The position numbers and the translations under genes are program-made. DNA of 63,570 bases, filler included, from Craspedostauros australis (lineage: Eukaryota), in NCBI GenBank assembly GCA_030167865.1. It is 13 parts of 13 records of this genome, joined end to end, with 100 filler letters (N's around TTAATTAATTAA, not from the genome) between each part and the next. Parts side by side here need not be neighbours in the genome. Positions count along the whole stretch, not along the records: positions 7,057 to 12,977 come from JALAGF010004886.1; 12 more parts are not named here. One strand, given 5' to 3'. Positions 4,269-62,021 of the stretch are shown here, in pieces. Each line of letters begins with the position of its first letter. The stretch's first letter is position 1. Below the pieces are notes generated by a model. The model made no database searches. It saw only the letters and a list, made by a program, of their open reading frames with translations, and was not told the DNA's origin.

Positions 4269-6529
4269 GCTCTGCACTCGACAACAGCACATTGGACGAC
4301 GCGGTCAAGGCGCTCCTCATTTCCGACAAGTCGCTGTCGCCCATACAGCTGCGAGAAGCTGTGCCGAAGGTGCTGGAATGGATGGAAGGGCAGCACATGT
4401 ACGGCCATCCGCATGAACTCACATCCACCGCAGCCGATCTCAATGTGATGGCGCTGCTCGATGGCACGTGTGGCATGACCATCACAGACCAATATCCCAC
4501 GGACATCCTCGAGGATACGGAGCGATTCGGCATTGCCTCGATACCGGGTTCGTCCACCATTGTGCGACAGAACACGCCCACAGCCTGCACGCAATCCACA
4601 TGCAACAAACAGGACGCGGAGCTGGGCTGGATCAACCAGGTCGGCGTGTCATCCTCCTCCGCACCGCTTGGCATCATCTCCTCCATCACAGCCAAAGCAC
4701 AGCAGCACCACGCTTTCCAATTCCTTGAATTCCTCTCCATGCGAAGCAACGAATTGCAAATCGGCACCCAGGATCCATCGGACTCGGCTGCCATGATGGA
4801 TGCCGGATCCAATGAAACCTCGATTGCGTCGCAATCCGCAACTCCATCCACGCAGCACCAACCGCTCTGTCAATCGCAGCTGGATGGCCTTTCCACCGTC
4901 TATCCGCAGTACGCGACGGTCATCGAAGATGTGGTCCAGCAATCCTCCGACGCCAACATCGCCAGTCCTCCGCGCATCACCATGGCGATGCAATTTTGGG
5001 ACACGCTGGACAGCAGCGCAAGAGAATACCTGACGCAGACGTCGCTCCAGAAGAATTCAACCACGGTATCATCCAGACAACAGATCGCCACCCGCATCGA
5101 ACGATCATGGGAGGCGATCATCGACCAACACGACGCTCGCCCGCTTCCAACCCCGCTGACCAAGCCTCATCTCCCAATGTCCATCTGGTACCAGAAATCG
5201 TTGAATCAATTCGAACCGACCCCACGCGACGAGAAGGGCATCGACCCTGTCATCCTGACGGGAGGTTGGACCTTGGCCATCATCTCCATCGTCGTGTCGC
5301 TGTACATGGCGGCCTGGGTCGTTCGCAACCGCCGCGAACGCGTCGTGCTGGCATCCCAACCCTACTTCCTCTACATGATCTGCGGCGGCACCTGCGTCAT
5401 GGGCATCTCCATCTTCTTCTTTGGTTTCGATCGCGACTTCCACCTGCTTTCCGGAGCCGTGGCATGCAACGCCTCCATCTGGCTCTACATCTTCGGTTTC
5501 TCGATCGCCTTCTCCGCGCTCTTCTCTAAAACATGGAGAATCAACCAGATCTTCCGCAGCAGCCACTACTTCCAGCGCATCAAGGTGGAGCTGCAGGACG
5601 TTCTGATCCCCTTCATCTTCATCCTCTCCATGAACCTCGCCACCCTGCTCATTTGGATGATCATGGAACTGCTGGAATTCGTGTGGGAAACAGAAGACGG
5701 CGACGACTTCAGCGGCGGCTTCTACTACTATTTCTACGTGGAAGCGAACGGAGGCAGCTCGGAAGCCTTTGCGCGGCGCGAGGACAACATCTTCCTCACG
5801 GTGGAACCAGATGTGATCGGACGCTGCACCTCGCAGCACGCCATCCTGTACCTCTGCATCCTGCTGGGTCTGAATCTGGTGTTTGCATTCGTCGCGCTGA
5901 TCCAGGCCTACGAATGCAGACGCATCACCACGGAGTATTCCGAAAGCCTGTGGATCGCAGGCACCCTGCTCATCATGATCCAGGTTTGGGTGGTGGGAGT
6001 CCCATTGTACGGCGTGGTGCGCAAAGAAGTCAACGCGCGGTTCATCGTCATCGCTTCGATCATCTTCATCACCATCATGACGACGCTGGGTTTCATCTTC
6101 ATACCCAAAATGAAGCACGTATCGGCACTGTCATCGTCCGCGGCCGGCACGGCCCTGTCATCTTCCACAGGCAAGAACGGAAAACAGCTCGACCCGGACG
6201 GTTCCGACGATCAAGACACCCTCCTGAATGAAGCCGAGAACTTGGGCATCGAAGTGCGCCGCAGTCTACCTGGCAACCGCGGTGCCTCCTTCCAGCTTTC
6301 CAAGGCTGTGCTACATCGCAAATCGTCGACACGACATGGATTGCGCCTATTCACATCGCAAGGCAAGCACAACACCGAAGTGCGGCAGCTCAAGGAGGAT
6401 CTCGGACGCACCGTCAGCTTGAACCGCACACTTCAAGGGCAGTTGGACAAGCTGCAGGAGAAATATCATTCGCATCGGCTGCGCAATACGAAGAACAAGA
6501 TCAGCGGCAAGGTTGTGGTGGTCGATTGA
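4269..6529 (+). CDS. Class C (GABA-B-like, 7tm_3) GPCR with large N-terminal extracellular domain and C-terminal coiled coil; 5'-truncated
   Basis: 745-aa ORF with VVLASQPYFLYMI, ACNASIWL..GFSIAFSALFSKTWRINQIF, R.ITTEYSES.WI, IFIPK, seven hydrophobic segments, and heptad tail EVRQLKEDL..LQGQLDKLQEK. Confidence 0.9.
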
Positions 6530-6956: not shown

Positions 6957-7056
6957 NNNNNNNNNNNNNNNNNNNNNNNNNNNNNNNNNNNNNNNNNNNN
7001 TTAATTAATTAANNNNNNNNNNNNNNNNNNNNNNNNNNNNNNNNNNNNNNNNNNNN

Positions 7057-7422
7057 ACCACAACAGAGCCCACCACAACAGAGCCCACCACAACAGAGCC
7101 CACCACAACAGAGCCCACCACAACAGAGCCCACCACAACACAACCCACCACACCACACCAGAACGCACCAGAACGCACCAGAACGCACCAGAATGCACCA
7201 GAATGCACCAGAATGCACCAGAACGCAACTCACAACGTGACGCAACAGAACGCAATATAACACACCGCAACAGAACACACCGCAACAAAACACAACTCGA
7301 CGCAACAGAACACAACACAACACGACGCAACAGAACACAACACAGCACGACGCAACAGAACACAACACAACACGACGCAACACAATGCAACAGAACACAA
7401 CACGACGCAGCCACAACACAAA
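7057..7422 (+). repeat. Compound tandem repeat: (ACCACAACAGAGCCC)x5, (CAGAAYGCAC)n, then degenerate ACAAC/GACGCAACAGAAC units
   Basis: 15-bp, 10-bp and 5-bp periodicities are directly visible. Confidence 0.9.
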
Positions 7423-8131
7423 TGATAATCAGCAATTACACGCAGGACAGGGCACCAAACACTGCACTTACTACGCCGCCTGGGTGATCAATCCAATAGG
7501 TGAAGTTGGAGATGTTTGGTGTTTGTTGTTGTTCTAAGTTAGTTGTAGTCAATTGATGATTGAGTTTGGATTATGAGATGATGATCTCCTATTTCTAATG
7601 ATGGTGCCTAATGCACGGTTGCTAACGTGCTGCTCGATTACCTCGTGGTTTCTCTCGCAGTCTTTCCCAAAACATTGCCCAAGATGGCATGTTGATTTAC
7701 ACGATATCCCGTGTTATTCTTGCCCTTGGGTCTTTCTTCATCTCTCCTGGTCTTGCCTAATCTTGATCTCTGTTTGATCACATATGGATTGATCCGTCTA
7801 CGTCGACGAGGTGCATGCATCACCTCTGACGATGTTCTTCCGGATCCTAAATGTTGTTGCCACGTGCTCAATGATGCACTCGGCTTTGCTAGACAAGTCA
7901 GCACACCATGACTAAAATATAATCTCGATTCCGAGGATCACAATGACCAATCCTCTGACGTCATACGATGATGTCAGTGCCTACGTCAGGTTCGATGACA
8001 GTAGTGACTGAATATCAATCGTGTAATCAAGACTCACTCGACTATACTCTCAAATCGAGTCGAATCAAAAAATAGTGAATCACATTTCAGTCATGGGAGA
8101 TGGGTACCTAATTTCGATCTAGATGTTGATA
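7423..8131. mobile_element. Solo LTR (about 709 bp), ends TGATAATC...GATGTTGATA, 5-bp TSD ACAAA
   Basis: ACAAA at 7418-7422 and 8132-8136. A homologous copy at 60362-60763 ends at the same TGTTGATA. Confidence 0.75.
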
Positions 8132-8180
8132 ACAAACACACAACACCTCACACCAACGCACACACAACAACAACACAACA

Positions 8181-9291
8181 ATGGTGGGCTCTGATGTCCG
8201 CTTTTACAAAGATGGGCCTGATGCGGCTGCCTTGATGAAGGCACTAATTGACGACCCAACAAAATGGAACTGGGAGGCAGAACGTCTGCGTCTCCACCAT
8301 TCATTTCTATGCAAGTATGATTCCAAAAAAATTGGTCAGACTCTACGTGACTTCAAACGAAGTTTGGTCAAAAAGAACTTGTTCCACAGTAAGTGCACAT
8401 GTGGTTGAAGCAGTTCCGTGTCGATGTGTGTGCTGAAGTCTCTGTTCTCTGACCACCATGTGATCAAGCATCATTTGCGTACAACATCGCCATTCCACCC
8501 ACGTCTCACCCATTGCCTTTCTCTGTTTGTGGTACACACCAACATGTGTGGTTTGCACATTGCAAATGCAAAAAAGTGGATGGCCAGCCCCATCAGATCT
8601 CTCAATCAAAGCTTGGATCCAAGCTCCTTCCACTTGACAACATGGACACCACGACATCCACCTCTGACAACCACAACCACAGCAACAACGTCTCCAACAC
8701 ATAAAGAGAACTAACAAGGAGCATAGTCACAGCCATGCAGCAAGAATCAGAAGTCCACGCCGTCGCAACCACCAGAGGGCACTCAAGCACTCAAGCACTC
8801 AAGCACACCCCAGCTTCAACCCCATGCTGCAGAGGATACTGACAGCAGTGTCCAGAGCATGTCGGATGCTTCAAGCCATGATTCCGATGTTGTGGACAGT
8901 GGCTCCGACCACGACATTGGATATGTTGGAGTGAAACTTGAGCCAGTGTCGCCCCCCACACAAGGTCCCACCCAGTGGCCCCATCACTGCAAGGTTTCAA
9001 CGTTTCTTCAACCTTCCAGAGGAGCAACGTGTCACACAGTTCCGCAAATTTCGTCGAACCATAGAGGTGTTCCACACAACACAAGTGTGGAGGCCTCCTG
9101 GTAAGAAGAATCGGATGATTGGTGTGGACTTCCACATGCCAGCCTGCATCACCAAACGTGATGCGACTGTCACAATTGAGAGCCGAAAGGTTGGCAGCGT
9201 ACCCTGCATGTTCCTTGTCCTCATCTACAAACCACCAGAGGCTTTTGGAAAAGATGGGAGCATTGTTGATGTCATGCTCCCGCATCTCTGA
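8181..9291 (+). pseudogene. Degenerate intron-containing gene of unknown function, convergent with the tyrosine recombinase
   Basis: ATG 8181 follows an ACA-rich leader. Exon 1 is MVGSDVRFYKDGPDAAALMKALIDDPTKWNW..; GTAAGT donor at 8389. Later S/D-rich and globular segments (..FHTTQVWRPPGKKNRMIGVDFHMPAC..) are broken by frameshifts. Confidence 0.45.
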
Positions 9292-10644
9292 AGTCATGGG
9301 GCTGCTGGACTTGAGGAGGTGAGGCCTCACAATGGGCTGAAGCTTCCCCTTGAGTTCTGGATGCAGCTGCTCAACTGTCAGTTCTGACATGTCGTCAATC
9401 TGACCCACATACATGTCAGCTCGGTCGGAGAGACTGCGGAAGTAGAGGTGCATTGCATTGGAGGTGGTGGTATAGTCCCCAATGATGCGAGCATCGGCAT
9501 CACCAGAGGATATTGGCAGTTTGTGTAACTTGGCCTTGCACATTTCATCATTGATGCGGCCTGTGCGAGGCGAGTGGGCAGAGAAGAACCTCTTGGGATA
9601 CCCCGCAAGAAGGCAGAGATTGCTTGTGATGTTGTTGATCCTTTCAGTGCTTGCAACTCCAAAGAGCTTGTCCGGATGCTTCCAAAGCTGGTTTCTGTGG
9701 CTTTTGAGGAACCTTGCCATTGCCACTGAAGCTTCCTCGGCTAGTACAGCCTCTCGCGGTGCCATGTCTGTTTCAGCCTTCTTCTGGGAGGCAAAGTAGA
9801 TGATGTAGCGCTTGGTATTGTGGTCATACTTTGGCCATTTCATTTCCTTGTCCACTGCAGCCTTTCCTCCTGCACCTGTCTCAAAGAGGAAGTAGAGAAG
9901 AGCAATGTCACGGTACCCATTTGGTGTTGGGTGTGTCGCAAGCTGTAGACGCCGGACGTCAGGGAGGGTGATTGACTCTGCTCGTTGCACGTTGTGTGAT
10001 GGCCTGATGCAGATCCGCTTGAGGTTCGTGCAAACGATGGCAAAGTGTTCAGAGTTCTCTCCAAGCTGCTTGAGGCCCGCAGCCACGTTGTAGATGTCGG
10101 TCCAACCCTTGAAGCGTTGAGTGATCTCATGGAAGGCCATCCGGGCACCCTTGGCCATGATGGTCAGCAGGCTTAATGTTGGTACATGATAGAGTACCAC
10201 CCAGGTGATGTAGAGTGCCAGACAGGAACCCAATGCATCATTGGGGAACATTGTCTCCCATGTTTGCTGCTTGGTGAAGTCCACAGGATCCCGGTTGGGA
10301 TTGTTGTCTGCTCGATGGTCTTTGAAGACAATATCTTCCCAGTCGTTGTGCTCAAAGAAGTCATCAATCAGCTTGCGCATCCTGTGGAGTTCTTGCTTCT
10401 CCTTGGGGCGCAAAAAGATTTGTGGATCAACTCTCACCATGTTGAAGAAGCCAAACATGGTGTGAGTGTCTGGAAAGAGATCATCCAGCAACTCATGCAT
10501 GATATCATCATCCCTTGGGTTGGCATTGTTGGCTTTTTCAGCCATGTTGGCATTGGTGTTGCGGTCAGTCATGGTGTGATGTACTGTGCTGTGATATGCC
10601 GTGTTGTTTTTTGTGCTTGTGTTTGTGTTTGTGTTGTGATACAA
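8791..10644 (-). CDS. Tyrosine recombinase (Crypton-like), probably inactive; true start likely at a downstream Met (about 10572 or 10545); the last ~165 aa may be read-through
   Basis: YRDIALLYFLFETGAG (box I, R replaced by G), QKK, FFSAHSPRTG (H-x-x-R), IIGDYTTTSNAMHLY (box II Tyr). No RT/RNase H adjacent. Paralogue at 12278-12977. Confidence 0.8.
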   Translation of the reverse strand: MYHNTNTNTSTKNNTAYHSTVHHTMTDRNTNANMAEKANNANPRDDDIMHELLDDLFPDTHTMFGFFNMVRVDPQIFLRPKEKQELHRMRKLIDDFFEHNDWEDIVFKDHRADNNPNRDPVDFTKQQTWETMFPNDALGSCLALYITWVVLYHVPTLSLLTIMAKGARMAFHEITQRFKGWTDIYNVAAGLKQLGENSEHFAIVCTNLKRICIRPSHNVQRAESITLPDVRRLQLATHPTPNGYRDIALLYFLFETGAGGKAAVDKEMKWPKYDHNTKRYIIYFASQKKAETDMAPREAVLAEEASVAMARFLKSHRNQLWKHPDKLFGVASTERINNITSNLCLLAGYPKRFFSAHSPRTGRINDEMCKAKLHKLPISSGDADARIIGDYTTTSNAMHLYFRSLSDRADMYVGQIDDMSELTVEQLHPELKGKLQPIVRPHLLKSSSPMTSEMREHDINNAPIFSKSLWWFVDEDKEHAGYAANLSALNCDSRITFGDAGWHVEVHTNHPILLTRRPPHLCCVEHLYGSTKFAELCDTLLLWKVEETLKPCSDGATGWDLVWGATLAQVSLQHIQCRGRSHCPQHRNHGLKHPTCSGHCCQYPLQHGVEAGVCLSA

Positions 10645-10720
10645 CTTGGTGTGGCTTGTTGCGATATGTTGTGATGTGTTCCAGTGTGGTGTATTGCAAT
10701 GGTGGTTCAGCTAGGATCAG

Positions 10721-11099
10721 CTTTGCTTGTTGAGGGTGACAGATCAATGGAGTGGCTCACGGTCAATCTCCTGTTGATGGGGCAAGTGATTCTGGCTCAC
10801 ACAGGTGATGCAATTGGTTTGTCTTTGCTTGTTGTGGGCGAGAGATCGATGCAGGGGATCGCAGTCAATCTCCTGTTGATGCTCAAGTGATTCCAGCTCG
10901 CAAGGGCGATGCAATTGGTCTGTCTTTGCTTATTGTGGGCGAGAGATCGATGGAGTGGCTCACAGTCAATCTCCTGTTGATGGGGCAAGTGATTCTGGCT
11001 CACACAGGTGATGCAATTGGTCTGTCTTTGCTTGTTGTGGGCGAGAGATCGATGCAGGGGATCGCAGTCAATCTCCTGTTGATGGGGCAAGTGATTCTG
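10721..11099 (+). repeat. Tandem array of 101-102-bp units (about 3.7 copies, alternating A/B variants) upstream of the recombinase
   Basis: Units start CTTTGCTT at 10721, 10823, 10924 and 11026. Shared core GTCAATCTCCTGTTGATG..CAAGTGATTC. Truncated by the LTR at 11100. Confidence 0.92.
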
Positions 11100-12065
11100 T
11101 GTTGGGAATCACAGATACTACAAAACTGCATGAAGATCAGCAGCAAGTTAATGGCACACCGAATGAAGATCAGCAGCATGTCAGTAGCACACGACATGAA
11201 GACAATTGTAAAAGTGGAACAATGAATGTAGAGTATGAATGCAAAAGTGGAGATGGGAAATTGTGTGACAAGATGGAAATCTTGGTCTCATAATTTGCCA
11301 TCGAGAACAACAAACAAGAACAACAACAAAACAAAATAAAAATACAGCACAATTTGTGTGAAACAAGGACTCTCAATTTACGCCAAGTGGATTTCTTAAC
11401 ACACTTCGAAGTGGCAGAAAAGAAACCACTTCAGGACAGACAAGATCAGCCCAAGACAGTTGGAAGCTGAGCAGGGATTGTAACTGAACTGACATCAGTA
11501 CAGATCCAGAACGAGAGAGAGAGAGAGAGACAGTCACATCTGAATTGATCTGAATACAAGATCAGACAACAGGAAAGAGGAGTACCCAAGAGAAGCTGGC
11601 ACTTCACTGAAAACAAGTCAGTGAGACAAAGAGAAGCAAGCAATCAACTGAACAAGTCAGTGAGCAAGCAGGAGGTAAAGAATCGAAGCAAGACTGCAAG
11701 TGATCAACACCATGACGACTGAAGCATCTACGACAGGAGAAACATCTCTCTGTGTGATTCTATTCGATGGAAAGCAGGATGGTTGGCGTTACTGGGAGAT
11801 GCGCTTCATGGCGAAGGCATCATCGCTGGACCTGGACGACATCTACCTTGGGATCGATGAAATCCCAATTGCAGCGATGGTGAAGCTCTCAGCATCAACA
11901 GCAGAGACCAAGGCGGACTACAAGAGGGCAAAGAAGGCCTTCAACTTCTTGCTGATGTGTATCGACGCTTCAACTGATGCCGGAAAGGTAGCCGCAGAGA
12001 TCTTCAACAACTCACGAAACAACGACCATCCAACCGGCAACACGAAGCAGGCTTGGGACAGCCTC
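11100..12065 (+). mobile_element. Copia 5' LTR (11100-11458) plus truncated gag (11712 to about 12065)
   Basis: LTR ends TGTTGGG...CCCAAGACA, and a homologous LTR lies at 14360-14675(-). Gag N-terminus reads LFDGKQDGWRYWEMRFMAKA...KQAWDSL. Confidence 0.75.
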
Positions 12066-12193
12066 CATCCAGTATCAAGCCATCCCAGCTTGAGTCCATC
12101 CAATATCAAGCCATCCCAGCTCGTCTCCGTCCAGTATCAAGCCATCCCAGCTTGTGTACAGTCACCACTGACCATCCCAGCTTGAGTTCATCC
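12066..12193 (+). repeat. 31-bp tandem repeat (about 4 copies) upstream of the second recombinase
   Basis: CATCCAGTATCAAGCCATCCCAGCT core at 12066, 12097 and 12128, plus a degenerate fourth copy. Confidence 0.88.
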
Positions 12194-12277
12194 ACCTTCA
12201 TCCCTACCACCCTGGAACCAGCCAGGTTGCTTCTATCCAATAGCAACCAACAGGCACATTTCAATCCAGAAGTCATC

Positions 12278-12977
12278 ATGGCACAACAAAACAACACTGC
12301 CACTATGGATGTCACTGATGTGCCACCAGACCAGAGGCTTCCAGGTACAGATGATATGCTCAACTTCTTCAATACAGTGATGCAAAATCCTCAGATGTAT
12401 CTCACACCCAAGGAGAAACAAGAGCTGAACAGAATGGAGAAGCTAGTGGATGCTTTCTTCGTTCACACCAGTCAAGAAGATGAAGACCAACCAGATGACA
12501 GGCCAGACCACGACCCAGCCAGAGAACCAATGGACTTCACCCTACATGAGACCTGGGAGGCAGTGTTCCCTGGAGATTACCTGGGAGCTTGCCTTTCCCT
12601 GTACATCACATGGGCTGTTCTCTACAGGGTTCCAACCATCAGCCTCCACACCATTGTGGCCAAGGATGCAAGGAGGGCTTATAATGAGATCCACAAGAGG
12701 TTCCCCTCCTGGAGCAATATCCACAACGCAGCTACAGGGCTCACGGCACTGTCTGAAAGCTCATCTACATTCTCCATCATCTACCACAACCTCAAACGAA
12801 TCAACATCAGACCAGCCCAGAATGTCCAGAGATCAGAGCCCCTCACTTGACCAGACATCATGAGGCTCCAACAAGCTGCACCACCCACCCCAACTGGTTG
12901 CAGGGATATTGCTTTGCTCTTCTTCCTATTTGAAACTGGAGCAAGAGGCAAGGCAGCAGTCGGCAAGGCTATGAAGT
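12278..12977 (+). pseudogene. Second Crypton-like tyrosine recombinase, 5' part, with an in-frame stop at 12848-12850; truncated by the contig end
   Basis: Co-linear with the 8791-10644 protein (PKEKQEL.RM.KL.D.FF, TWE..FP.D.LG.CL.LYITW, NLKRI.IRP..NVQR). After the stop it continues GCRDIALLFFLFETGARGKAAV, retaining the catalytic R. Confidence 0.8.
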
Positions 12978-14359
12978 NNNNNNNNNNNNNNNNNNNNNNN
13001 NNNNNNNNNNNNNNNNNNNNNTTAATTAATTAANNNNNNNNNNNNNNNNNNNNNNNNNNNNNNNNNNNNNNNNNNNNTGCCGATGATCGGATCGTCAACC
13101 AGCACGGACAGTGCCTCCGCAGCACTCTCGAAGACGAACATGATGGCTGCGCACAGAATAAGGTGTGTGCCGAATGCTTCCCACGGCAAGCCGTGGATGG
13201 CGTATGCTGGAATTAGGAGGGAGAAGATCGCAAAGAGGATAAAGATGGGAACGACGAGGATGGACTTGACCATGACGTAGGTGGCTGCGGAGACCATTCC
13301 ATTCTGCGATTCTTGTTGGATGGACTTGAACTCATTGTTTAATGCGTACACCGCGACGATTCCCACTGTTCGCGTTCAGATCATATGGAATGCAGCAGAG
13401 TAGAGTAGGCACAGAGTAAATTAGAGTAGAATGGAATAGAGTAGGCAATGTGAGCATCATCATCGTTGCCGCCCTATTCGTACATAGTCGTTGGCGTGCG
13501 CATATTGGCAGTTGCAATAGAAAGCGAAAGATGCACAAAAGATATGTTGTGTCTCGGTTTCCATCTCAGTTCATTTCATTTTGTTTCTTCGCTTCGGGCC
13601 ATCCACCACGTACTGTTGGTCGAGATGCTCACGAACCAGAGCTGGACCCACATCTTGTTGTACAGCTGATCGAACTCGTTGTCTTGGGCATTCCAGAACA
13701 CGAAGCTAATCACTGTGCTCATCATGAGGAAGATGAGGCAACGCCCGAGATACAAGATGGGATTACGGCCGATCAATAGCAGATGGCGTTTGAACGTGAT
13801 GCTGATTTCTGTCATGAAGCTGGTGCCTTGGGTCTTCCCCACGCCTGCCGCTTCGTCGTCGTCGGCATCATTGTCAATTAGCTCTGTGTCATGAGTCGAA
13901 CCTCTGTGGAACAACGCATTCTTCGACTTGTGCTGGTCCCAAAGGTTGAGCATGTGCTCCGCTTCTTCGTCACCAGAGAAGTCAGAATTGACCAGATCAA
14001 GGAAGTGATCGGCTGGGTTGGTGGCCTCTGGGAGTGGAAATCCGATGCGATCGAAGCATGGCGTCGCTTCATTGACATCACCCGAGAAGGCTTGGCGTCC
14101 ACGACTCATGATCATGACCTGATCGAATCCGTTGAAAGCCTTGGTGGATGGCTGATGGATGGTGCACACGATGATGAGGTTCTTTTCCTTGGCAACGCGC
14201 GAGCTTCTTGTAGGATGTTGGCTCGTCAAGGAAGAGCACGGTTGGCTGTTTGACGAGTGCCACAGCGATGCTGAGACGTCTCTGCTGCCCACAGCTGGGA
14301 CTCGCACAACGGGTGTCAGCACAAATGGCGAGGCCTATCTTTTGGATGATTCGATCAAC

Positions 14360-14675
14360 TGTTCCGGGGATGGTATCTGCAAAGAAATCCGCCTGCCGTA
14401 AATTCAGAGTCCTTGTTTCACATCAATTGTGCATTATTTTGTGTTGTGTTGTTATCGTTTGTTGTTATTGATGGCGAATTGTGGGGCCCAGATTCCCATC
14501 TTGTCGCACAATTTCTCATCTCCCTTTTTGTATTCAAACTTCGCGTTCAACGTTACTGCTTGTACACTTCTCTTCAAGTGGTGTGCGACTGACATGCTGC
14601 TGATGTTCATGTCGTGTGTTACTGCCATGCTGCTGATGTTCACGGTTCCATAGTACGTGTCTGTGATTCCCAACA
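14360..14675 (-). mobile_element. LTR of the same family as 11100-11458
   Basis: Reverse complement starts TGTTGGGAATCACAGA and aligns with 11100-11400. Ends ..GGAACA. Preceded by purine-rich GGAAGGG. Confidence 0.75.
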
Positions 14676-15286
14676 CCCTTCCGAGCAGGTGGAGAAGGGC
14701 AATGGGTCAATCGTCAATCTCTCTCCCACATGTATTCAGCGATTAGCGCAACGCTATTTCTGAAACAAGTGACGCCTGTCGACCAATCAGAAAATAGTCT
14801 ATTTCCCGTTTCTCCGCTGCTGAACGGGAATCTTGATGCGACATGACGTCATGTCATTCTTGTGTCGCACTTCGTATCACATGAATAGTTTTCCCTCCGT
14901 TCAGTTTTCGGATGGCGTGGGACCAATTTTCTTACCCATCCTGAATTCTGAGAAGGAGCTTCCATCCAATTAGGACAGACTCCGGTCTTGGCCAATAAAT
15001 GTGAATGGATCCAGGCCTTCTCAACATGGAAGACGATCAATCGTATGATCGTTCTACTAGCAACATCGTGAGGAGTTGCCCTCCACAACATGGCGTATCG
15101 CGGTGCTTTTTTTCTGACTTTTGCAAATCTTAACTCACGCAGTAACATGCGCAGTTGTCGTGTTGTCTCTGTGTTAGATTCCATCTGAATATGCATGAGG
15201 CCTGCAAGCCCTCCCTCATGCTCACAGTTCCAAGAGCTCAATCTTTGGAGCTCGACAGCATTCTTCCTACTCAAACAAAGAACCAC

Positions 15287-23853: not shown

Positions 23854-25767
23854 CTGACAGGCTGCATTTCGGTACACGACTGTTTGTGACACGGGACTGG
23901 AAACGCTCCAAGGTAGTCCGAGTGCGATCAACATGGGCTGACTATAGTTGGTCCCAATGATACTATCGGAGGGTGGGGTAATAGTGAATATTGAAACACT
24001 ATTGTACTCTCGATCCTCGACATGTCGCGGTTTGGCAGGGATGTTGACAAAAAAATCCGGGAAGGCAAGTCAGGGAGTCGCGGAACCAAGATCAAACTTC
24101 GCCAACGATACAACCCTTTTCAATCGAAGGCTGCGACCACGATGTCAGTGGGCTGCAACATTGCGTGCACATTTATCCGACGAATTGTGACGAATAAACA
24201 AGGTGGAGAACCAGGGGAGCTAAATGCACTTATTCCTTCACATGGGGAGGCCTTGCTGTGACCGGTACTAGTCATATACTTGGCGATCCCCCACCGAAGA
24301 ATGGAGAGAGTTCTCGCTTCCGAATATCATCCGATGAGTTTCGCATCAAGACAACAACGTCACGAATAGTTCGAGAAGCAACGGACGACAAATGACTGAG
24401 TCTGTTTGAGTGCAAATCACATGGTCCTTGCCTGGTGTTCTAACTCTAGCTGTTGGTGTAGTGTGCAGAACAAGAACGTTTCACTTTGACAACGCTCTAC
24501 TCTTGGACATGTCCCAGAATGGCTTTCTTATTCCTTCCATTATGTCAAAGCTGCCGAAAGACGAATTCAACCTGTTTGTCGCAGTTGATGGAGAAGCGCT
24601 TGCGTCAAGAAGTTGTTCTTGAATGACCCACGCCATTTTATCCGTTGACGACATTGTGGACGCAAACGTTGACAAGCAGCCCCGGGGGTCTCACAAAAGA
24701 CCAAAGTTTATCGGGTCGACGCACCCTGACCAGAAGTTGCCACGACCGAGTCGTAGAATGCTTACCTACACCTCAGCAGAGTGTACCGGAACAAGCTCCG
24801 ACCTGGTTTGGTCGTGGATCTTGATGTGGGTAAATCGATTGGTGAATGAAGTGCGATGATTCATTCTGTGCTCTCTTGCCCATCTTGTGACTTGCACTTG
24901 TCTGAACGTACGATAGATGTGCTTGGTGAAGTCTCAGCTGTGCGCAAGAGTGGTTGGCTCTTTGACCTTCACTCAAGGATGTGGGCAAGTTAGGCTCGTG
25001 GGAAGAAAAGAAGAAGCTGTTTGGATGTCGCTCAGAACCTGATGCTCTGGGGATGCTGCCACAAGCATGTGAACCTTCTCGGGCTGATCGCAAACGAAGT
25101 GAAGCGCTTTGGAAGTGGATTGCTTTGGTGAGGGGAGCAGCTTTCCACACCGATGAAGTTCACGGGGGCGGGAAAGTCTCGAAACCTCGGGTGGCATGAC
25201 TCTCCCAAAAACTACCAGTTCATGGGTGGACATGTGTCTGTATCTGAACCTTGACGATGGCATGCCAGAGAGTTTGGCGAATCCGCTTTGCCTTCCCCTG
25301 AAACCGCTTCGAAAAAGCAGCGCTGTGTCAGCAATGAAGGGGAACTTATTACGCATACTCGGAAGATTCGAGCGGTGGGAGCGTAAGCGACACAACTTGC
25401 GACATCTCTTTTGCTGGCCGCTCACAAATGCAGAATACTGGAAAAGAAGGAAGCAACAAACACACGCACACAAACACACGCACACAAACACACGCACACA
25501 AACACACGCACACAAACACACGCACAGAGAGAGAGAGACGCACATTCAAACATAAACGCAGAGAGAGAGAGGGAGAGAGAGACAAGCAAAGCAAGACAAG
25601 CAAACGAACCAATAGCATCACGAACAAGAGCAACACAAGACAAGCCGCGCGCGTATTGCAAACAAAGCACGCACCAGTTCAACGACGACGACGACGACAA
25701 CAACAACAACAACAACAACACCATCAATCAAGAGGCCGAGACAACGTCGAAGAAGCGAGGGGTCGAG

Positions 25768-60361: not shown

Positions 60362-60763
60362 GGGTCTTTCTTCATCTCTGTCTGATCCTGTCTGCCTTGA
60401 TCTCTGTTTGATTACATAAGGGTTGATCCGTCTACGTCGGCGGGGAGCTTGCATCATCCCTGACGATGTTGTTCTGGATCCTAAGTATTGTTGCCACGTG
60501 CTCGATGATGCACTCGGCATGGCTAGACAGGTCAGCGTACCATGACTAAAACANNNNNNNNNNNNNNNNNNNNNNNNNNNNNNNNNNNNNNNNNNNNNNN
60601 NNNNNNNNNNNNNNNNNNNNNNNNNNNNNNNNNNNNNNNNNNNNNNNNTCAATCGTGTATCAAGACTCACTCGACTATACTCTCAAATCGAGTCGAATCA
60701 AAAAATAGTGAATCACGTTTCAGTCATGGGAGATGGGTACCTAATTTCGATCTAGATGTTGAT
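60362..60763. mobile_element. LTR of the 7423-8131 family abutting a Copia RT
   Basis: High similarity to 7728-8131 with the same TGTTGATA end. Confidence 0.8.
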
Positions 60764-62021
60764 ACTAGACAGCATCATCATCGACTTTGAGACAGCATTC
60801 TTGCATGGAGACCTCGACGAAGAGATCTACATGCAATGCCCAAAAGGCATGAAACACGAAACCGATGAATGTCTGCTGCTCAAGAAAACCATCTACGGAC
60901 TCGTGCAAAGTGCCCGACAATGGAATAAGAAGCTCGTCGACATCCTATTCAAACTGGGGTTCAGGCAGAGCGAGGTAGACCCATGCCTACTGATTCGGAA
61001 TCAGGAAGGGCAACTGCTTTTAATCGGCACCTATGTGGACGATTGTCTCTGCATCGGAGAAANNNNNNNNNNNNNNNNNNNNNNNNNNNNNNNNNNNNNN
61101 NNNNNNNNNNNNGTCAAAGTGGAGGAAGATCTTGAAGACTACCTAAGCTGCAAGATCATATTCAACCATGACAAGACGAACTGTTGGGTGAACCAACCAC
61201 ACATCCTCAAAAACGTCATCGATACGTTCGGGAGCGATGTGCTGAAACTACAACGATACGGAACACCAGGAACACCAGGGCAGGGCATCCAAAGGAACAG
61301 CGATGCACCCAAGGTGGACGAACAGCGACACAGCCGATACCAAAGCGGAGTAGGCATGCTGCTATACCTGGTGAAACACTCTCGACCCGACATCGCCAAT
61401 GCAGTGCGAGAGCTGACCAAAGTATTGGACGGACCAACGGCCTTAGCATACAAGGAGATGCTATGAGTCATGAAGTTCGTATGGGACACAAGAGAATATG
61501 GACTGAAGATGAAACCGAGTCCACTGACCCAAGATGCATGGAAGATTGCAATATTCACCGACAGCGAATTCGCAGGTGACAAGGACAATCGCATCAGCGT
61601 AGGAGGGCACATCGTCCTACTACAAGGAGTACCGATCATATGGAGATCAAAGGCACAACGCAGCGTAACACTCAGCTTGACAGAAGCAGAATACGTCGCA
61701 CTGTCAGAAGCAGGGAAAGAAATCCGCTTCGTGACGCAACTGATGAGAGACATCGGATTAAAGATGCACAANNNNNNNNNNNNNNNNNNNNNNNNNNNNN
61801 NNNNNNNNNNNNNNNNNNNNNNNNNNNNNNNNNNNNNNNNNNNNNNNNNNNNNNNNNNNNNNNNNNNNTTCATACGTGAACTCGTCAAAAATGGAGAAGC
61901 CATAACCAAATTCGTGCGATCGGAAGACAACATCGCAGACGGCTTCACAAAGAACACCAAAAATGAGATCTACGACAACCACAAGAGTCACTTCATCCAA
62001 CTGCGGTCTGCAATGGATTAA
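60764..62021 (+). mobile_element. Copia RT-RNase H fragment, same lineage as 19974-22275 and 28466-29006
   Basis: DFETAFLHG, IYGLVQSARQW, YVDD, RPDIA, DSEFAGD, EAEYVAL, ADGFTK; TGA at 61464 where Arg is expected. Confidence 0.94.

Follow-up and report, generated by a model that had tools for sequence, protein, structure and literature searches.

Two recombinase gene copies in a small contig

Two gene copies of a tyrosine recombinase lie head to head in a short contig of Craspedostauros australis, presumably a diatom (assembly GCA_030167865.1, record JALAGF010004886.1). The contig is part of a window, by which is meant the whole stretch of 63,570 nucleotides that was analysed, filler included, and in which small contigs are chained by linkers of the form N44-TTAATTAATTAA-N44 (for example at 6957-7056 and 12978-13077). 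Because the window is concatenated in this way, features that face each other across a linker are not genomic neighbours. The span 7057-12977 is exactly one contig of 5,921 bp, so that both ends of the span are assembly breaks. The contig is small, unplaced and repeat-rich. The analysis draws on this 5.9-kb contig, on the remainder of the window and on relatives taken from public protein and metagenome collections.

The features that belong to the two recombinase copies are the following:

8791-10710, minus strand: open reading frame (ORF) of copy 1, stop to stop, with an ATG at 10545 that is in line with the ATG of copy 2 at 12278
9278-10545, minus strand: homologous part of copy 1, a Cre-type N-terminal domain and a catalytic domain (profile, phmmer and AlphaFold2 (AF2) model)
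9868-9870, minus strand: box I codon of copy 1, GGA (Gly) at the catalytic arginine position
8791-9277, minus strand: tail of copy 1, 161 open codons, to 8794, without similarity to relatives
10546-10720, minus strand: leader of copy 1, A/C-rich on the coding strand (sequence and skew profile)
12278-12976, plus strand: copy 2, from the N-terminal domain through box I (Arg kept), interrupted by an in-frame TGA (12848-12850) and cut short where the contig ends

An earlier note on this DNA had described two diverged, head-to-head tyrosine recombinase paralogues, and these are real: tblastn aligns the copies at 55.9% identity over 236 amino acids (E 1.9e-79), and copy 1 is modelled with the fold of Cre, as set out below. 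At the DNA level the copies are 66% identical across 574 nt, and the similarity is confined to coding sequence. Across 232 aligned codons, amino-acid identity is 57% and the proportions of nonsynonymous (pN) and synonymous (pS) differences are 0.266 and 0.746, the latter being saturated, which gives a ratio of nonsynonymous to synonymous change (dN/dS) of ∼0.08. These values indicate that the two copy lineages separated long ago and evolved under strong purifying selection. Searched against the whole window, the family profile recovers only copies 1 and 2. A tblastn match at 15133-14777 in the neighbouring contig (E 0.037) was rejected on the grounds that the profile sees only two copies window-wide, and a match at 24966-25196 (E 0.05) is regarded as noise.

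A Cre-like fold in an unnamed family

The fold of the recombinase was approached through an AF2 model of residues 1-440 of copy 1, built on an alignment of 15 relatives and reaching a mean predicted local distance difference test score (pLDDT) of 78.5. Every one of its top structural matches is Cre (Foldseek E 8.9e-8, probability 1.00). In the VIA-align superposition, residues 39-385 of the model lie on residues 28-337 of Cre, with a Z score of 17.5, a root-mean-square deviation of 4.8 and 286 of 322 residues aligned at 14% identity, as expected of a Cre-fold tyrosine recombinase. The match spans both domains, and the N-terminal domain shared by the copies is therefore a Cre-type N-terminal domain; the ∼200-amino-acid region that had gone unrecognised in the earlier note superposes, in the AF2 model, on the N-terminal domain of Cre. 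A separate model of one relative, P0007 (pLDDT 83.2, predicted template modelling score 0.71), has Cre as its best match among 48,161 chains in a Foldseek-independent comparison (Z 14.3). Language-model neighbours of the family include Phage_integrase, ALOG and NDC10_II clusters, and sequence searches of solved structures, made with copy 1 and with the family profile, returned nothing relevant.

The catalytic residues were counted by column in a 16-row alignment (copy 1 and 15 relatives), and were mapped to Cre residues by motif position:

Box I Arg column: Gly in copy 1, Arg in 14 of 15 relatives
Lys column: Lys in copy 1, Lys in 14 of 15 relatives
HxxR His column: His in copy 1, His in 8 of 15 relatives
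HxxR Arg column: Arg in copy 1, Arg in 12 of 15 relatives
Aromatic column: Tyr in copy 1, Trp or Phe in 11 of 15 relatives
Nucleophile Tyr column: Tyr in copy 1, Tyr in 14 of 15 relatives

The catalytic pattern that these columns show for the family is R-K-H-R-(W/F/Y)-Y, in which the aromatic position (W/F) is, by motif position, presumably the counterpart of the Trp of Cre. Most relatives carry the full R-K-H-R-(H/W)-Y set, and copy 1 fails at Arg I. Its catalytic domain has K258, H327-x-x-R330, Y361 and Y371 (P0001 numbering), with H-S-P-R encoded at 9565-9576 and the conserved Tyr at 9442-9444. Box I, HxxR and the catalytic Tyr, all of which had been reported for copy 1, are thus recognisable, but its box I lacks the catalytic residue: the codon is GGA (Gly) in copy 1 versus AGA (Arg) in copy 2 and Arg in 14 of the 15 relatives.

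Family libraries are almost blind to these proteins. Neither copy 1 nor copy 2 matches Pfam at E <= 1, and NCBIfam and PHROGs give no family-level match. The sole library traces among the relatives are a sub-threshold match of P0015 to Phage_integrase (E 0.0018) and a match of P0003 to an integrase PHROG (E 0.038). A word-indexed homologue search finds nothing for copy 1, and recovers only P0018 with the family profile. The relatives come from HMMER (phmmer), which finds 20 of them at E <= 1e-3 among 1.84 billion representative proteins, four below 1e-30. The ten relative clusters that were looked up have metagenome members only, either unnamed or called ‘hypothetical protein’. Judged by these searches, the recombinase family is rare and unnamed.

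A C-terminal region of ∼200 amino acids is common to 12 of 15 relatives. In the model of P0007 this domain (∼386-553; locus L001, 1152-2813) is predicted with confidence (block pLDDT 75-95) and has helices first and then a small alpha/beta unit. The fold search, made with the whole protein and hardly a test of that part, gives no clear match for it. Another relative, P0009, has 1,283 amino acids, including a WW domain (E 4.4e-9) that precedes the recombinase. Its contig measures up to 26 kb, and it is possible that the protein represents a fused or host-recruited form.

The setting of the relatives bears on one further explanation, that the recombinase is the integrase of a larger integrating element, virus-like or cargo-carrying, of which the contig is a mere corner. 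Some relatives do lie on larger contigs (P0009 on one of up to 26 kb), and the fusion of P0009 to a WW domain would suit such an element. However, three scans of viral contigs yield no relative, the P0007 cluster has four full-length members, each on a contig of only 3.1-3.5 kb, and Pfam searches of 65 ORFs in the contig reveal no virus-like gene. A larger element is consequently considered very unlikely.

Defects in both copies

A profile made from the 15 relatives only matches copy 1 over positions 33-433 of 640 (E 1.6e-101), and the homology stops near nucleotide 9277. The C-terminal part of the profile, positions 434-640, matches the contig in none of its six reading frames. Copy 1 had been called complete, but it lacks the ∼200-amino-acid C-terminal domain that 12 of 15 relatives possess. 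What follows the homologous part is the tail of 161 open codons. An equal degree of openness is rare by chance, arising in 6 of 20,000 mononucleotide shuffles and in 28 of 5,000 dinucleotide shuffles. Two features speak against a genuine coding tail: its codon-usage score is weak and fades past ∼9150, and the strand composition skew reverses sign at ∼9100-9300. The tail may be lineage-specific or may be read-through into foreign sequence.

Copy 2 matches the family profile on either side of its in-frame stop (E 2e-36 and 2.4e-11). It is cut off by the contig end, so the catalytic residues beyond the box I Arg are absent from its sequence. As they stand, both copies appear defective: copy 1 has Gly at Arg I and no C-terminal domain, and copy 2 has a premature stop. 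Given the long purifying selection between the two lineages, the present defects must be late events.

Selection of this kind could also be expected of paralogous host genes, domesticated from recombinases and no longer transposons. Besides the strong purifying selection between the copies, this explanation draws on the long open frame of copy 1 and on its missing catalytic Arg; according to Kojima & Jurka (2011, PMC3212892), Crypton derivatives that have been domesticated, such as DUF3504, typically lack this residue. Against it, copy 2 retains the Arg yet has an in-frame stop, the copies sit in a small unplaced contig amid transposon debris, and the relatives are patchy in distribution, lie on short metagenome contigs and mostly keep all catalytic residues. 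Domesticated host genes are therefore thought improbable.

Arrays and probable retroelement debris between the copies

The sequence between the two copies is occupied largely by repeats and fragments:

10721-11099: 102-bp tandem array upstream of copy 1, 3.7 copies (or 203 bp, 1.9 copies), found with Tandem Repeats Finder (TRF)
11100-11397, plus strand: dispersed repeat of ∼300 bp with an internal 33-bp tandem, which recurs in the neighbouring contig
11712-12062, plus strand: copia-gag-like ORF fragment that stops exactly where the 31-bp array starts
12064-12194: 31-bp tandem array upstream of copy 2, 4.3 copies (TRF)

Each copy is indeed preceded by an array of its own, as the earlier note had seen, with units of 102 bp (3.7 copies) and 31 bp (4.3 copies) in TRF. 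The upstream regions of the two copies show no similarity when compared with each other (local score 21; shuffled sequences average 19.5 and reach 32), and neither array region contains lox-like short inverted repeats. The 102-bp array ends abruptly at 11099/11100, where the dispersed repeat begins.

The dispersed repeat and the copia-gag-like ORF between the copies had been missed before. The repeat at 11100-11397 aligns with 14676-14382 at 78% identity over 304 columns, with sharp boundaries on both sides. An assignment as long terminal repeat (LTR) was tried and set aside: the neighbouring copy has no target-site duplication and no primer-binding site directly after it, and the sequence is therefore called a dispersed repeat; that it is an LTR is possible, not proven. 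The neighbouring copy at 14382-14676 ends at TTTCTTTGCAG, which is acceptor-like, directly ahead of an ABC-transporter exon (ABC_tran, E 8.8e-10). This copy may lie in an intron and is possibly an introner-like element.

The ORF at 11712-12062 has no match in Pfam. Its Pfam-labelled language-model neighbours are all Gag (Retrotran_gag_2/3/4 and DUF4219), with scores of 0.87-0.89 that serve as a lead only, and the ORF, judged partly by a motif, resembles a copia-type Gag N-terminus. The simplest reading of the retroelement debris between the copies, as far as the sequence goes, is nested insertion, by which the 5' region of copy 2 would have come to abut a truncated gag.

No reverse transcriptase beside the recombinase

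The absence of reverse transcriptase (RT) and RNase H from the recombinase genes, claimed from the contig sequence, extends to the relatives. Searched against Pfam at E <= 0.01, none of the 65 contig ORFs of at least 50 amino acids has an RT, RNase H or integrase domain, and RT is found in none of the 20 relatives. The metagenome scan yields just two short loci (L001 and L002). At these loci, of 3.3-3.4 kb, the recombinase is the single ORF and there is no RT or RNase H beside it; the upstream 1.1-1.4 kb at these loci contains no ORF of more than 142 amino acids.

These results weigh directly on the explanation that the copies are fragments of a recombinase-bearing retroelement, either DIRS/Ngaro-like or an LTR element with an acquired tyrosine recombinase, whose RT has been lost or lies off the contig. 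It takes its appeal from the gag-like ORF at 11712-12062, which stands behind an LTR-like repeat on the same strand as copy 2 and 215 bp upstream of it. On the other side stand the lack of RT and RNase H in the 65 ORFs and 20 relatives and the lack of a long upstream ORF at both of the two relative loci. The gag-like ORF, moreover, ends exactly at the start of the 31-bp array, as an insertion junction would, and the recombinase has an ATG of its own that is aligned between the copies. A retroelement origin is thus judged unlikely.

Terminal inverted repeats (TIRs) are likewise missing, in agreement with the earlier note. The contig holds no convincing TIR, only low-complexity matches of 25-26 nt that are 73-80% complementary, between 7150-7287 and 10557-10692. 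These inverted matches are read as the CA-rich leaders of two putative convergent units and not as TIRs.

The left part of the contig and the proposed partner gene

To the left of copy 1 lie three further features:

7057-7422, plus strand: A/C-rich minisatellite tract at the left contig end, with units of 15, 10 and 25 bp and related lengths (TRF), resuming at 8132-8180 beyond the insertion
7423-8131, plus strand: solo-LTR-like insertion of ∼709 bp with ACAAA on either side and a second partial copy at 60362-60764
8181-8388, plus strand: putative exon 1 of a partner, a candidate gene that opens with an ATG (8181) just beyond the A/C-rich tract and has its GTAAGT donor at 8389

The sequence inserted at 7423-8131 is a discrete unit flanked by ACAAA, and part of it recurs at 60362-60764 (86% and 98% identity) with the same 3' boundary, so that the identification as a solo LTR made earlier is reasonable, though not proven. 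The copy at 60362-60764 abuts a copia-type reverse-transcriptase fragment (RVT_2, E 3.7e-22). This fragment, at 60756-62021 and with a YVDD motif, is broken at 60764/60765 by the second LTR-like copy. In the minisatellite tract, the 15-bp unit at 7057-7152 (6 copies) is the reverse complement, at 15 of 16 bases, of 8182-8197 in the region of the partner-ORF start codon; about 0.4 such matches would be expected by chance in the contig on a rough estimate, and the match may be meaningless. The contig that precedes this one in the window carries a large ORF at 4271-6526 with a seven-transmembrane domain of the family-3 G-protein-coupled receptor type (7tm_3, E 9.7e-36).

An intron-containing partner gene had been proposed at 8181-9291. 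From 7057 to ∼9100 the plus strand has an A/C-rich bias like that of the coding strands of both recombinase copies; together with the ATG and the donor, this bias favours a candidate plus-strand transcription unit. Beyond these points, the proposed gene finds no support. No Pfam family is matched in any frame, exon 1 has no homologue among longer proteins, and tblastx of 8132-9300 against the window returns nothing better than E 0.015 and no second copy of the partner. Codon-usage scoring of 8100-9300 has no clear outcome in any of the six frames, enumeration of splice acceptors gives several possible second exons of which none is compelling and none convincingly reaches 9291, and from 8791 to 9291 the proposed gene would lie over the recombinase ORF of the opposite strand.

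The partner had been joined with the repeats into a larger proposal, a composite mobile unit made of the repeat tract, the partner gene, the convergent recombinase and the 102-bp array. In such a unit the arrays would act as ends or as recombinase-binding sites. There is a tandem array ahead of each copy, the skew speaks for a unit on the plus strand, from 7057 to ∼9100 and convergent with the recombinase, and the partner ORF has its ATG and GTAAGT donor. Among the relatives, L002 has a 90-bp repeat (1.9 copies) within the 5' part of its ORF, and the first ∼175 residues of P0002 resemble a translated tandem repeat. Upstream repeats may accordingly recur in the family, on evidence that is thin. 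However, the relatives do not consistently carry such arrays or a partner: the two metagenome loci have neither room for nor sign of a partner gene, and L001 lacks an upstream array, its sole array (21 bp, 4.7 copies) being at the 3' contig end. Within the contig, the partner lacks a homologue, a Pfam family, another copy in the window and a convincing splice to 9291; copies 1 and 2 have no array or leader sequence in common; the array regions are devoid of lox-like inverted repeats; and the dispersed repeat cuts off the 102-bp array. With unrelated debris lying between the copies as well, the notion of a two-gene, repeat-bounded mobile unit is not supported, and we regard it as decidedly unlikely.

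Interpretation of the locus

The contig is best read, with a probability of roughly 0.6, as carrying two anciently diverged and now defective gene copies of a recombinase-only (Crypton-type) mobile element, amid transposon debris. A recombinase-only element is the best reading because no RT or RNase H is found in the contig or beside the two metagenome relatives. With its Cre fold, its lack of RT and its rare, unnamed family, the element deserves the label ‘Crypton-like’ that the earlier note gave it, in the broad sense of an element with a tyrosine recombinase only. Being rare and unnamed, the family probably represents a new lineage within an already known kind of element. Cryptons are also treated by Goodwin et al. 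2003, as cited by Kojima and Jurka.

Under the Crypton-type reading, intact relatives would encode a protein of 550-760 amino acids that consists of the recombinase and the ∼200-amino-acid C-terminal domain. Their movement would follow the scheme proposed for Cryptons, with excision as a circle and then site-specific integration via a short shared sequence. A Crypton in the broad sense would be a repeated unit whose defined ends lie between short direct repeats of 4-6 bp. The head-to-head layout of the copies and the neighbouring arrays would result from nested insertions and not from a functional two-gene unit.

Six observations weigh on the other side of this interpretation. (i) The gag-like ORF lies directly upstream of copy 2 and on the same strand. 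(ii) Where homology stops, the frame of copy 1 continues for another 161 open codons, which is more natural for a gene that functioned until recently than for one that decayed long ago. (iii) The reversal of skew at ∼9100-9300 suits a convergent plus-strand unit, as had been proposed. (iv) The low dN/dS suits host genes as well as transposons. (v) The Gly codon and the TGA each come down to a single base, in a contig that is small and unplaced, and are possible sequencing errors. (vi) A single contig of 5.9 kb offers neither ends nor target-site repeats nor empty sites, and no second copy of nearly the same sequence is present.

A more far-reaching reading, which can be put forward only tentatively and is more doubtful than probable, is that the family constitutes an unnamed deep lineage of eukaryotic recombinase-only elements. 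Such elements would combine a Cre-like recombinase with a private C-terminal domain of ∼200 amino acids, would occur sparsely among protists without being seen by Pfam, NCBIfam or PHROGs, and would use recurrent upstream arrays as recombinase-binding or promoter modules.

The copies in the window look inactive, and their direct biological weight is small; no new mechanism of transposition is revealed by them. If the Crypton-type interpretation is confirmed genome-wide, the Crypton-type elements, which are polyphyletic, would gain a further lineage, and the profile and two confident structure models would help to annotate a recombinase family that is missed in protist genomes and metagenomes.

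Comparison with known systems

Among the retroelements that encode tyrosine recombinases (DIRS, Ngaro, PAT and VIPER), the resemblance lies in a eukaryotic Cre-like recombinase, and in the gag-like ORF that happens to lie upstream of copy 2. In DIRS and Ngaro the recombinase follows RT and RNase H, with or without a methyltransferase, and the repeats are either inverted terminal ones with an internal complementary region or split direct ones. Unlike these elements, neither the contig nor the relatives contain RT, RNase H or methyltransferase, and no inverted terminal or split direct repeats are seen in the contig, whose ends limit the test. Cre of phage P1 shares the two-domain fold over nearly its full length. 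It differs in sequence (14% identity), in the absence of a lox-like site from the array regions, and in that the eukaryotic proteins have an extra leader of ∼40 amino acids and the relatives a C-terminal domain of ∼200 amino acids.

Starship captains and two kinds of Crypton can be compared through their Pfam families. DUF3435, which stands for the captains at the end of large cargo-carrying elements, and GCR1_C, which stands for CryptonF, have no match in copies 1 and 2 or in the 20 relatives. CryptonA recombinases match DUF3504 at E <= 8e-12 (PMC3212892), whereas DUF3504 is matched neither by copies 1 and 2 (E <= 1) nor by the 20 relatives (E <= 0.01). The domesticated Crypton derivatives (DUF3504, Ndc10/Cbf2 and ALOG) resemble copy 1 in the lack of a catalytic Arg, and Ndc10 and ALOG are weak structural matches to P0007 (Z 5.1-5.7 and 5.2, respectively). 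In contrast with such derivatives, the family has no match to Pfam DUF3504 or NDC10_II, and most of its members keep the catalytic set.

The closest comparison is with Cryptons themselves, which are DNA transposons whose sole gene product is a tyrosine recombinase (Kojima & Jurka 2011, PMC3212892). In a 2026 paper (PMC13465315), Cryptons are emphatically described as not monophyletic. CryptonS is known from oomycetes and one diatom, Phaeodactylum tricornutum (CryptonS-1_PTri: 4,671 bp, 4 copies; 2011, PMC3212892). A Crypton in diatoms is thus already described in that source, which qualifies the suggestion that the element may be undescribed in them. In PMC3212892, CryptonS is characterised by a conserved C-terminal region, no GCR1_C, and terminal direct repeats of 5-6 bp, often TATGG, and the supplement gives 3.1-3.2 kb for CryptonS-1_PI and CryptonS-2_PI.

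Several features may separate the present family from CryptonS. There is no link at the sequence level, as the 20 phmmer matches are all unnamed; the catalytic-residue motifs differ by eye from the CryptonS rows in the alignment of PMC3212892; and both copies in the window are defective, copy 1 having no C-terminal region in six frames. A possible likeness lies in the relatives, which carry a conserved C-terminal region and no GCR1_C (0 of 20), and of which those in the P0007 cluster lie on single-ORF contigs of ∼3.1-3.5 kb, near the size given for CryptonS-1_PI and CryptonS-2_PI. With Cryptons in general, the family shares the character of a eukaryotic element without RT, in which the only recognisable gene encodes a tyrosine recombinase.

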